Positions 1,615-3,080 of a DNA stretch of 7,069 nucleotides are shown here, piece by piece. How positions within the stretch are numbered: position 1 is the first letter of the stretch; each line of letters begins with the position of its first letter. The stretch comes from a virus. Taxonomy: Duplodnaviria > Heunggongvirae > Uroviricota > Caudoviricetes. The notes beneath the pieces are model-generated. The model saw only the letters and a program-made list of their open reading frames with translations, made no database searches and was not told the origin of the DNA. The stretch covers positions 1 to 7,069 of the IMG/VR virus record IMGVR_UViG_2636415416_000010; one strand, 5' to 3'. The translations under genes and the position numbers were made by a program.

Positions 1615-3080
1615 TGGCACGAAACAAACAAGCCCTGCGGCGAACTGTGCAGGCCACAGCTGATGGTTATGAGAATTTTATTGCCCGCGTAGGGATGCAG
1701 ACACCTAACCAGCACTCAGCATCCACCTACCGGGCTAATTTCACCAGCCGTAACCGCATGCTGGTGGAATGGTCCTATCGTTCATCTTGGATCATCGGCG
1801 AAGCAGTCGATGCTATCCCGGATGATATGACCCGCAAAGGCATTCGCATCACTTCGGAAATTGATGCAAAAGATCGTGGCATTCTCGAATCACAACTGGA
1901 TGAGTTGCAAATCTGGGATGCGCTGAATGACGTGCTGAAATGGTCGCGCCTCTACGGCGGCGCGGTGGGTTTCATCATGATTGAGGGGCAGGCACCAATG
2001 ACCCCGCTGCGACCCGAAACCATCGGTAAGGGCAAGTTTAAGGGGATTCTCCCGCTCGACCGCTGGATGGTCGACCCGGCACTGACCCGCCGCATTAAAG
2101 ATATGGGGCCGGACCTGGGTAAACCTGAGTTTTACGATGTGGTGACCACAGCAACGGGAATTCCTGCCTGGCGCATTCATCACAGTCGCCTGATTCGCTT
2201 TGATGGCGTCACGTTGCCATTTCAGCAGAAGATGACCGAGAACGAATGGGGAATGTCGGTTGTAGAGCGTATCTGGGATCGTCTTACCGCGTTCGACAGC
2301 GCTACTGTCGGCGCGGCGCAGCTGGTCTACAAGGCGCATTTGCGTACCTACAGCGTGGAGAAGCTACGCGAGCTTATCGCACTTGGTGGTCCTGCGTATG
2401 AAGCGTTGCTGAAGAATATCGACCTGATTCGACAGTTCCAGAGTAATGAAGGCATGACGCTCATGGACTCGCGGGATAAGTTTGAAACCCATCAGTACAG
2501 CTTCAGTGGTCTGGATGACATCCTTTCGCAGTTTGCAGAACAGATTAGTGGCGCTGTTGGTATCCCACTGGTGCGGTTGTTCGGACAGTCCCCGAAAGGA
2601 TTTTCTACCGGTGATGCAGACCTTGCCAACTATTACGATCGCATCAGTTCGTTGCAGGAGAGGCGTTTACGTCTTCCGGTGCGGCGGATACTGGACATCA
2701 TGCATCGTTCGGAACTTGGCAAGCCGCTGCCGGACGATTTCACGTTTGAGTTTAACCCGCTCTGGCAAATGTCTGATGTCGATCGCTCAACGGTGGCGTT
2801 AAACACCACCAACGCAATCAGTACGGCGCTGGGTGATGGTCTGATGACACTGAAAGCCGCTATGACTGATTTGCGAGAAAATTCTGACGTAACCGGCATC
2901 GGGGCATCCATTACCGACGAGGACATCGAGAATGCCGAAGATGAAGCGCCGCCCGGCATCGGCGAACCTGATGACGAACCGCAGGAGCCGTCAGGCGGAA
3001 ATCCGGTATCGAACCAGCCTACGCAGGATAGCGAGGGCGGTCGGAGACATCGTAAATGGTCGCTACGATGGTTCAAATGA
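1614..3080 (+). CDS. Phage portal protein
   Basis: 488-aa ORF immediately downstream of the terminase with start/stop overlap, the canonical portal position. Size and acidic C-terminal tail (EDIENAEDEAPPGIGEPDDEPQEP) are typical of portals. GGGGAGA lies about 10 nt upstream of the ATG. Family assigned from synteny and general features, not a confirmed domain hit. Confidence 0.7.
   Translation: MARNKQALRRTVQATADGYENFIARVGMQTPNQHSASTYRANFTSRNRMLVEWSYRSSWIIGEAVDAIPDDMTRKGIRITSEIDAKDRGILESQLDELQIWDALNDVLKWSRLYGGAVGFIMIEGQAPMTPLRPETIGKGKFKGILPLDRWMVDPALTRRIKDMGPDLGKPEFYDVVTTATGIPAWRIHHSRLIRFDGVTLPFQQKMTENEWGMSVVERIWDRLTAFDSATVGAAQLVYKAHLRTYSVEKLRELIALGGPAYEALLKNIDLIRQFQSNEGMTLMDSRDKFETHQYSFSGLDDILSQFAEQISGAVGIPLVRLFGQSPKGFSTGDADLANYYDRISSLQERRLRLPVRRILDIMHRSELGKPLPDDFTFEFNPLWQMSDVDRSTVALNTTNAISTALGDGLMTLKAAMTDLRENSDVTGIGASITDEDIENAEDEAPPGIGEPDDEPQEPSGGNPVSNQPTQDSEGGRRHRKWSLRWFK

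Follow-up and report, generated by a model that had tools for sequence, protein, structure and literature searches.

The stretch of DNA analysed here (hereafter the window; 7,069 nucleotides [nt], positions 1 to 7,069 of IMG/VR virus record IMGVR_UViG_2636415416_000010) comes from a virus of the Caudoviricetes and carries the head-packaging module of a prophage. On its plus strand, a large terminase gene (Terminase_3, PF04466) that ends at 1614 is followed by a portal gene of the Phage_portal_3/DUF1073 family (1614-3080, plus strand; 488 residues; PF06381, E 3e-106, 355 bits, which is above the Pfam threshold). Directly 3' of the portal gene is a gene for a MuF-like head morphogenesis or minor capsid protein (2932-3714, plus strand; 260 residues; PF04233, E 1.5e-18). 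These two genes share a dual-coding segment of 149 nt (2932-3080, plus strand), which is the subject of this work. We propose that it is very probably a genuine, old and evolutionarily maintained same-strand, out-of-frame overlap between two head-module genes of a SEN34-like temperate phage.

The segment encodes MuF residues 1-50 in one frame and portal residues 440-488 in the other, so that the last 49 portal codons sit within the MuF gene, which is in the +1 frame relative to the portal. The portal frame is closed by a TGA at 3078-3080, the MuF frame opens downstream of a TAA at 2890 according to open reading frame (ORF) analysis, and the third (-1) frame of the overlap is full of stops. These ORF positions bear out the geometry described in a first-pass annotation made from the letters alone, with a portal open to 3080, a MuF ATG at 2932 and a 149-nt out-of-frame overlap. 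That annotation had set the overlap against short coupling overlaps at three other junctions of the module. It was right about 1614, where TGATG gives an overlap of 1 nt, but wrong about 3718 and 4843, which are 3-nt gaps (3714/3718 and 4839/4843). As for the identity of the two proteins, the Phage_Mu_F domain spans MuF residues 137-243 and scores 68 bits against a Pfam cut-off of 29.6, PHROG 146 matches portal residues 3-488 and PHROG 324 matches MuF residues 6-249. In a PDB sequence search, the relatives of the portal included the Pam3 portal (8hds, E 2e-37) and E217 gp19 (1e-14), and MuF gave no match. The gene order, terL, portal and MuF, agrees with the typical context of MuF-family genes, which directly follow the portal gene (PMC5576092).

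The same junction is found in many other genomes. Over 2700-3300 the genome of Escherichia coli FDAARGOS_943 is 100% identical to the window, two further chromosomes show zero mismatches over 2917-3865, and 15 IMG/VR contigs encode an identical (100%) MuF protein. A 601-nt junction sequence is present at full length in 339 of 5426 complete E. coli genomes, in one of them with 100% identity, and it aligns as a single piece among the E. coli matches listed. The closest isolated phages are vB_EcoM-689R2 and its relatives (92.7% identity), Citrobacter phage Omnitron (84%) and Salmonella phage SEN34 (83%); the junction alignment to the vB_EcoM-689R2 group, Omnitron and SEN34 is gap-free, and ATG 2932 is invariant across the three isolated phages. 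In the two that are annotated, the portal gene has 1467 nt (488 residues), as in the window. Because the same junction recurs in independent assemblies, a sequencing error is excluded, and the constant portal length likewise rules out an indel. The indel or sequencing frameshift put forward in the first-pass annotation is thus rejected, as homologous portals do not stop before the MuF start.

The distribution of the overlap beyond close relatives was assessed by a scan with one genome per species, which yielded 37 loci. Codon alignments were built from 27 non-redundant loci (<97% identity), and the IMG/VR set consisted of the best 80 viral contigs, with 31 distinct junction sequences. An overlap of 134-179 nt in a constant +1 frame was found in 26 of 26 non-redundant Enterobacterales loci outside Arsenophonus, the genera concerned being Escherichia, Salmonella, Citrobacter, Shimwellia, Pantoea, Rahnella, Erwinia, Xenorhabdus, Izhakiella, Rosenbergiella, Morganella, Rouxiella and others. 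The ATG is kept in all 80 IMG/VR contigs, with an overlap of 149 nt in 78 of them and of 152 nt in two. The overlap reaches ~152 nt in Pandoraea and 86-92 nt in Arsenophonus (92 nt, +1 frame), Chitiniphilus, a marine gammaproteobacterium and a Thiobacillus. It is only 8 nt in a Sulfuricella and a Burkholderiales genome, and an Acidobacteriota locus has none. We also defined 19 lineages whose pairwise differences at fourfold-degenerate sites are at least 50% (median 67%, near saturation), all of which have kept the overlap. The alignment of homologues across the junction, the check that the first-pass annotation had proposed, thus reveals that an equally long overlap is conserved and that homologous portals do not end before the MuF start. 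A constant relative frame follows from dual coding, which tolerates only indels of 3n bases.

The relatives also give an indication of the order in which the two frames arose. The N-terminal 50 residues of MuF, residues 14-50 among them, are conserved at the protein level across genera, and a segment of the form A-E-x-x-Y...L-R-K-I-A-x-x-V-G is already found in the relatives with 8-nt overlaps, ~9-12 residues from their start. Since those relatives already have the N-terminal segment, we infer that the MuF frame is probably the older one in the shared stretch, and that the portal tail would be the younger, overprinted frame. A variation on the common arrangement was observed in Xenorhabdus innexi, X. 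bharatensis and X. szentirmaii (loci L021, L022 and L023), whose portal ORFs end at 3595, 3613 and 3595, respectively. In their portals, the Pro-Pro motif and the conserved tail are separated by an additional ~75 residues (…NGAQISSMVEIVSSVAAG…ERIMGSVGNGF…). The MuF start is shifted along with this insertion, and both the LRWF end and an overlap, here of 137-149 nt, are retained.

Synonymous variation is suppressed in both frames of the overlap. We expressed it as the ratio of the observed synonymous diversity to that expected from codon usage. Over the 27 loci, this ratio is 0.55 inside the overlap versus 0.85 outside for MuF and 0.35 versus 0.85 for the portal, with a value of 0.26 for the portal opposite MuF codons 14-50. 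Differences at fourfold-degenerate sites among the 19 lineages show the same trend, at 0.40 inside versus 0.68 outside for MuF and 0.30 versus 0.645 for the portal. At the level of individual codons, MuF Arg27 is encoded by CGA in 19 of 20 Arg codons (background 0.11), Leu30 by CTA in 25 of 27 (background 0.06), Ile33 by ATA in 26 of 26 (background 0.14), Gly47 by GGT in 26 of 27 (background 0.29) and Asp46 by GAT in 25 of 27. Tyr45 is TAC in 27 of 27 loci; at this place, TAT would introduce a stop into the portal frame. Codon 32 specifies Lys, Gln, Ala, Arg or Glu, and its third base is always G, which keeps a portal Asp invariant. The third bases of the fixed MuF codons are the first bases of portal codons and preserve the motifs P-[VI]-S-N-x-[PS]-T-x-D-S and L-R-W-F. 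Preservation of these portal-tail motifs accounts for the fixation of the rare MuF codons CGA, CTA and ATA and of GGT.

As a control for shared ancestry, we further compared the portal-frame identity of the loci with that obtained after resampling the synonymous codons of each MuF gene under an unchanged protein sequence. Inside the overlap, the observed amino-acid identity in the portal frame is 0.51 versus 0.23-0.27 expected (ratio 1.9-2.2), and the ratio is 1.13-1.36 in five control blocks of MuF. When the portal proteins are fixed instead, the MuF-frame identity ratio is 1.99 for codons 1-13 and 2.44 for codons 14-48, versus 1.16-1.25 in portal control blocks. Per locus, only 3-10% of the resamplings of MuF codons leave the portal frame open over the observed length, with a median expected overlap of 26-68 nt. 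For the window alone, the figure is 7% of the trials, so that its overlap taken singly is only marginally beyond chance; the overlap is far beyond chance because all 19 lineages, with their near-saturated synonymous sites, have kept it. An RNA structure was rejected as the source of the synonymous conservation: the fold of 2880-3100 is no better than that of shuffled sequences (z = 0.04), an Rfam search of the region gave no match, and the conservation follows portal codon phase and amino-acid identity. Judged from the codon alignments, our analysis demonstrates purifying selection on both frames within the overlap. The first-pass estimate, which set a minimum of 110 nt of dual-coding sequence and considered 149 nt probable, is supported by this comparative evidence on both frames.

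As for the start of MuF, we consider it likely that translation begins at ATG 2932-2934 (plus strand), which is invariant in the 27 non-redundant and the 80 IMG/VR loci. A Shine-Dalgarno sequence, GAGGA (2919-2923, plus strand), is located 8 nt before this ATG, within the portal codons for D-E-D. The portal Glu codon that it contains is GAG in all 24 loci with a TDEDI motif (background for GAG 0.49), its final G being the synonymous third base that completes GAGGA, and the T of ATG 2932, a synonymous third base of a portal Asn or Asp codon, is a T in 27 of 27 loci. In the three Xenorhabdus loci, where the upstream portal sequence differs, GGGGAG and an ATG occupy the equivalent site, and the MuF frame opens just one codon earlier. 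The MuF-frame identity ratio is 1.25 immediately upstream of ATG 2932 and 1.99 in codons 1-13, and this step at the ATG indicates that selection on the MuF frame begins at 2932.

Other start codons fit less well. The in-frame candidates of the window are ATG 2932, 2941 and 2971, the next ones being GTG 3241, 3256 and 3265 and ATG 3268. We rejected ATG 2941, ATG 2971 and a TTG at the equivalent of position 13, which are not conserved, several loci having no start near position 13/14. Starts beyond the portal stop were also rejected, as they would delete ~103 conserved residues. The first-pass statement that MuF has no alternative start after the portal stop is therefore inexact to the letter, given the GTG at 3241 and the codons that follow it, but holds in effect because of the loss of those residues. 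From ATG 2932, the overlap provides MuF with a basic N-terminus, its first predicted helix and the conserved segment AExxYRTSLRxIAxxVG.

Public annotations of MuF are at variance with this start and with one another. The NCBI pipeline places it at the equivalent of 2971, which gives a 110-nt overlap, and short forms of 157 residues in Shigella, 176 in the vB_EcoM phages and 202 in SEN34 and the E. coli E2348/69 prophage are on record. In public protein clusters, a single group of MuF orthologues is annotated at 157, 176, 197-205, 220-226, 240-251 and 257 residues. This spread reflects a systematic inconsistency in the choice of the start codon around the overlap. In the E2348/69 prophage (L042), the annotated 202-residue MuF begins downstream of the portal stop.

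The portal tail encoded by the overlap consists of an acidic, proline-rich linker, followed by PVSNQPTQDS and then by a basic end, GGRRHRKWSLRWFK. The P-V-S-N-Q-P-T-Q-D-S motif (3003-3032, plus strand) is read across MuF R-Y-R-T-S-L-R-R-I-A, and the terminal L-R-W-F-K with its TGA stop (3063-3080, plus strand) across MuF Y-D-G-S-N-D. Among the loci, the portal stop is either a TGA within AAT GAC or, one codon later, a TAG within GAT AGC. The E. coli E2348/69 prophage (L042, chromosome 1573295-1576895) has a portal that ends at position 1860 of the locus, with a tail 8 residues shorter (…RGYRK*) owing to a TGG-to-TAG change, which also replaces Gly43 of MuF by Arg. The shortened tails of E2348/69 and Arsenophonus imply that the last motif is not indispensable everywhere.

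Signals of programmed frameshifting, which the first-pass annotation had envisaged, were also looked for. The portal frame of the window contains no X_XXY_YYZ heptamer, and, as described above, we detected no unusual RNA structure in the region. A Pro-Pro-Gly site, CCG CCC GGC, is present at 2949-2957, and its CCC could re-pair as CCG in the MuF frame. Since MuF is in the +1 frame, a portal-MuF fusion would be geometrically possible. However, CCC as the second Pro codon is limited to the window and two other loci (L001 and L002), the codon being CCA or CCG elsewhere, and the context of the portal stop also varies, from AAA TGA to CGA TAG. Frameshifting into the -1 frame was rejected because this frame is closed by stops and the heptamer is absent, and +1 frameshifting at Pro-Pro-Gly or at the stop was discarded as a conserved mechanism, given the variability of both the CCC codon and the stop context. 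With neither a slippery heptamer nor an unusual structure found, the frameshift proposal receives no support. Portal-MuF fusions do occur in other phage groups, and a rare product of this kind is conceivable, with nothing in our data pointing to it.

Could the overlap nevertheless be an illusion? That a local indel or sequencing frameshift artificially lengthens the portal in this genome is hardly conceivable. The general prior on long overlaps (PMC2478687) is the one argument for it, and the comparative data already refute it: isolated phages have the 488-residue portal, independent assemblies have the identical junction, and the latter is carried by 80 of the 80 best IMG/VR contigs and by 339 E. 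coli genomes. A similar prior might be invoked in favour of an annotation artefact, in which MuF begins past the portal stop (at GTG 3241 or ATG 3268, or at the equivalent of Met-56 in relatives) and the upstream ORF is untranslated. None of 715 same-strand overlaps >60 bp surveyed in prokaryotic genomes was found to be real (PMC2478687), and several public records contain the short MuF forms (157, 176 and 202 residues). We nevertheless regard such an artefact as highly improbable. Across genera, the protein sequence of MuF residues 14-103 is conserved down to an overall identity of 46-60%, the synonymous sites of the portal are most suppressed at that very stretch (0.26), and the PHROG 324 profile spans MuF residues 6-249. 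Moreover, from 2971 to 3241 no canonical start codon occurs in the window, and in several loci none that would spare the conserved segment exists either around position 13/14 or beyond the stop.

Two further explanations accept the sequence but differ as to how it is used. A programmed +1 frameshift, at CCG CCC GGC or at the AAA TGA C stop, might yield a portal-MuF fusion that tethers a few MuF copies to the portal ring. The +1 position of MuF at every locus, the Pro-Pro-Gly stalling motif of the window, the match of some portal-annotated PHROG families to the MuF domain at their C-terminal end and the annotation 'portal and MuF-like fusion protein' in mycobacteriophages (PMC9584339) would all agree with this idea. 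It is very unlikely, however, given the lack of conservation of the slip site, the different stop contexts, the absence of an X_XXY_YYZ heptamer, the closed -1 frame, the z of 0.04 and the absence of an Rfam match. The conserved Shine-Dalgarno and ATG favour independent initiation, and a constant frame is expected anyway under dual coding, where only indels of 3n bases are tolerated. Alternatively, the portal tail might be a functionless read-through to the first chance stop, with selection in the overlap acting on MuF only. The tail is indeed more variable than the remaining portal (amino-acid differences of 0.47 versus 0.25), it resembles low-complexity, disordered sequence, its stop is made by conserved MuF codons (AAT GAC or GAT AGC), it is truncated in the E2348/69 prophage and Arsenophonus, and no such tail is present in PDB relatives like 9jlf, which end close to the PPG motif. 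We still find this explanation improbable, since the synonymous sites of MuF itself are suppressed within the overlap (0.55 versus 0.85; 0.40 versus 0.68 at fourfold-degenerate sites), and since CGA, CTA, ATA and GGT, each of which preserves a portal residue, are fixed and codon 32 keeps the base of the portal Asp. In addition, the portal-frame identity is twice the neutral expectation, versus 1.13-1.36 in the controls, and the frame is open in 19 lineages and in 80 of the 80 best viral contigs, with a neutral expectation of 3-10% per lineage.

We therefore favour a true overlap of two translated genes. All close relatives and many distant ones have kept the two ORFs intact, the start signals have been conserved and the frameshift signals looked for are absent. 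According to this model, a single late mRNA would be read in two frames over 2932-3080. Ribosomes that translate the portal would run on to the TGA at 3078-3080 and add a C-terminal tail of 49 residues, and other ribosomes would initiate afresh at GAGGA-N8-ATG (2919-2934) within the portal ORF and make the MuF-like protein. Coupling by termination and reinitiation appears too distant, since the MuF start lies 149 nt before the site of portal termination. Portal ribosomes crossing the MuF ribosome-binding site may limit initiation there and keep MuF scarcer than the portal. This idea was prompted by gp7 of phage SPP1, which is portal-bound and present at 1-2 copies per capsid (PMC5576092).

Several observations weigh against the model or limit its reach. 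The E2348/69 tail is cut 8 residues short and the Arsenophonus tail ends 57 nt earlier. Part of the conservation of the portal tail is imposed by conserved MuF residues, and the loci share ancestry, so that combined probabilities are not true P-values. The actual production of both proteins is deduced from sequence. An AlphaFold2 model of MuF built on a 23-sequence alignment is of low confidence (predicted local distance difference test score, pLDDT, of 57) and says little on the packing of the N-terminal helix. Finally, the window phage is a decayed prophage of Shigella/E. coli in which an insertion sequence (IS) element truncates a downstream head gene, and the overlap may no longer be expressed there. 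We take the overlap of the window as a probable relic, passed down from functional relatives like the plaque-forming phage SEN34 (PMC5261728).

It is tempting to speculate on what the tail does. It probably projects from the portal crown into the capsid interior, where it would be found with MuF, the scaffold and DNA. The portal tail and the MuF N-terminus might share their 149 nt because the two act together. The PVSNxPTxDS and LRWF motifs could dock or regulate MuF in the procapsid or contact packaged DNA, shared encoding would turn the portal tail and the MuF 5' end into a recombination-proof unit, and the internal start would set a low ratio of MuF to portal, although we regard these suggestions as tentative and rather doubtful. 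The Xenorhabdus loci, in which a ~75-residue insertion is accompanied by the same tail and the same MuF 5' end, are consistent with the tail and the MuF 5' end forming one unit.

Our literature searches turned up no earlier account of a portal/MuF overlap. A survey of 338 prokaryotic genomes identified no real same-strand overlap >60 bp, the longest real one, of 56 bp, being that of holD/rimI in Enterobacteria (PMC2478687). Like the overlap described here, holD/rimI is a conserved same-strand overlap validated by comparison of orthologues (PMC2478687); in contrast, the portal/MuF overlap is nearly three times longer and phage-borne, with codon-level evidence of selection in both frames. A known arrangement of the genes themselves that comes close is that of SPP1 gp6/gp7, in which the muf gene, with a PF04233 domain, directly follows the portal gene (PMC5576092). 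The portal of the window belongs to a different Pfam family (PF06381), and a long portal/muf overlap is not mentioned in that work (PMC5576092). By analogy, MuF would be present inside the head in few copies, attached to the portal.

At the terL/portal junction (1614), of the ATGA/TGATG coupling type, two neighbouring same-strand genes of one late operon also overlap, and the portal/MuF overlap probably influences the relative expression of its two genes as well. At 149 nt it is nevertheless too long for such coupling, its internal Shine-Dalgarno points to independent initiation, and the two genes share amino-acid information. Overlapping genes are classic in phages, with the alternative-frame genes of phiX174 and lambda Rz/Rz1 as examples. 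The portal/MuF pair resembles these in having two same-strand frames, an older one and a younger, low-complexity one, with suppressed synonymous variation. It differs from them in that the overlap is of a terminal rather than a nested type, with a 3' gene end over the 5' end of the next gene, and that it joins structural partners over 49 codons, with family lengths of 8, ~90, ~150 and up to 179 nt. Lambda G/GT is a programmed frameshift product of phage morphogenesis genes. It also involves two frames in a structural module, and portal-MuF fusions of other phages show that the two proteins are workable as one chain, but the portal/MuF overlap lacks a conserved slippery sequence and a stimulatory structure, and the start signals of MuF are its own and conserved.

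In prokaryotic annotation, a long same-strand overlap is nearly always an error, and the 149 nt shared by portal and MuF are a well-supported exception to this rule. Present in 339 of 5426 complete E. coli genomes and in many Enterobacterales prophages, the overlap is widespread; it is notable without breaking a category, and it reveals no new mechanism. In practice, MuF annotation is inconsistent and often truncated (157, 176, 202, 244 or 257 residues), and the conserved start gives ~257-260 residues. Our results also point to a selected C-terminal peptide, previously unremarked, on DUF1073-type portals. The series of overlaps of 8, ~90 and ~150 nt offers natural material for studies of how overlaps grow by overprinting.

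Several further features were noted in the remainder of the window. Sequence similarity to vB_EcoM-689R2 and SEN34 starts at ~1525-1557, and positions 1-1525, with the terminase and an upstream ORF at 3-260, have no nucleotide similarity to the terminase region of these phages, a sign of a mosaic joint immediately 5' of the portal gene. Downstream of MuF, the gene for a DUF2213 protein (scaffold; 3718-4839, plus strand) encodes 373 residues, versus 406-410 in its homologues. BLAST places a 99-nt in-frame deletion at ~4749-4757, where a 9-nt stretch aligns on both flanks; short direct repeats in the region coding for the acidic, low-complexity part of the protein may thus have mediated the deletion. 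The same prophage is found in FDAARGOS_943 (L041, locus 176-2915 and 4272-5015), with an overall match of 99.5-99.8% and an identical junction region. Its terminase gene contains an IS2, and its MuF, which has an internal stop (W222*), is an NCBI pseudogene that begins at the equivalent of ATG 2971 and overlaps the portal by 110 nt.

The head genes of the window end with a truncated gene for a cement/decoration protein (4843-5175, plus strand), of 110 residues versus ~165-168 in homologues. It is directly followed by a gene for an IS630-family transposase with DDE_3 and helix-turn-helix domains (5191-6222, minus strand). The head module appears to be truncated by this IS insertion and the prophage to be a remnant. 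Next to the IS is an ipaH-type leucine-rich-repeat fragment (6319-6912, minus strand; LRR_TTSS and leucine-rich repeats), which corresponds to the N-terminal 197 residues of an IpaH-type type III effector, without the C-terminal ligase domain, and ends just before the IS. The combination of an ipaH fragment and an IS is typical of ipaH-linked prophage remnants in Shigella.

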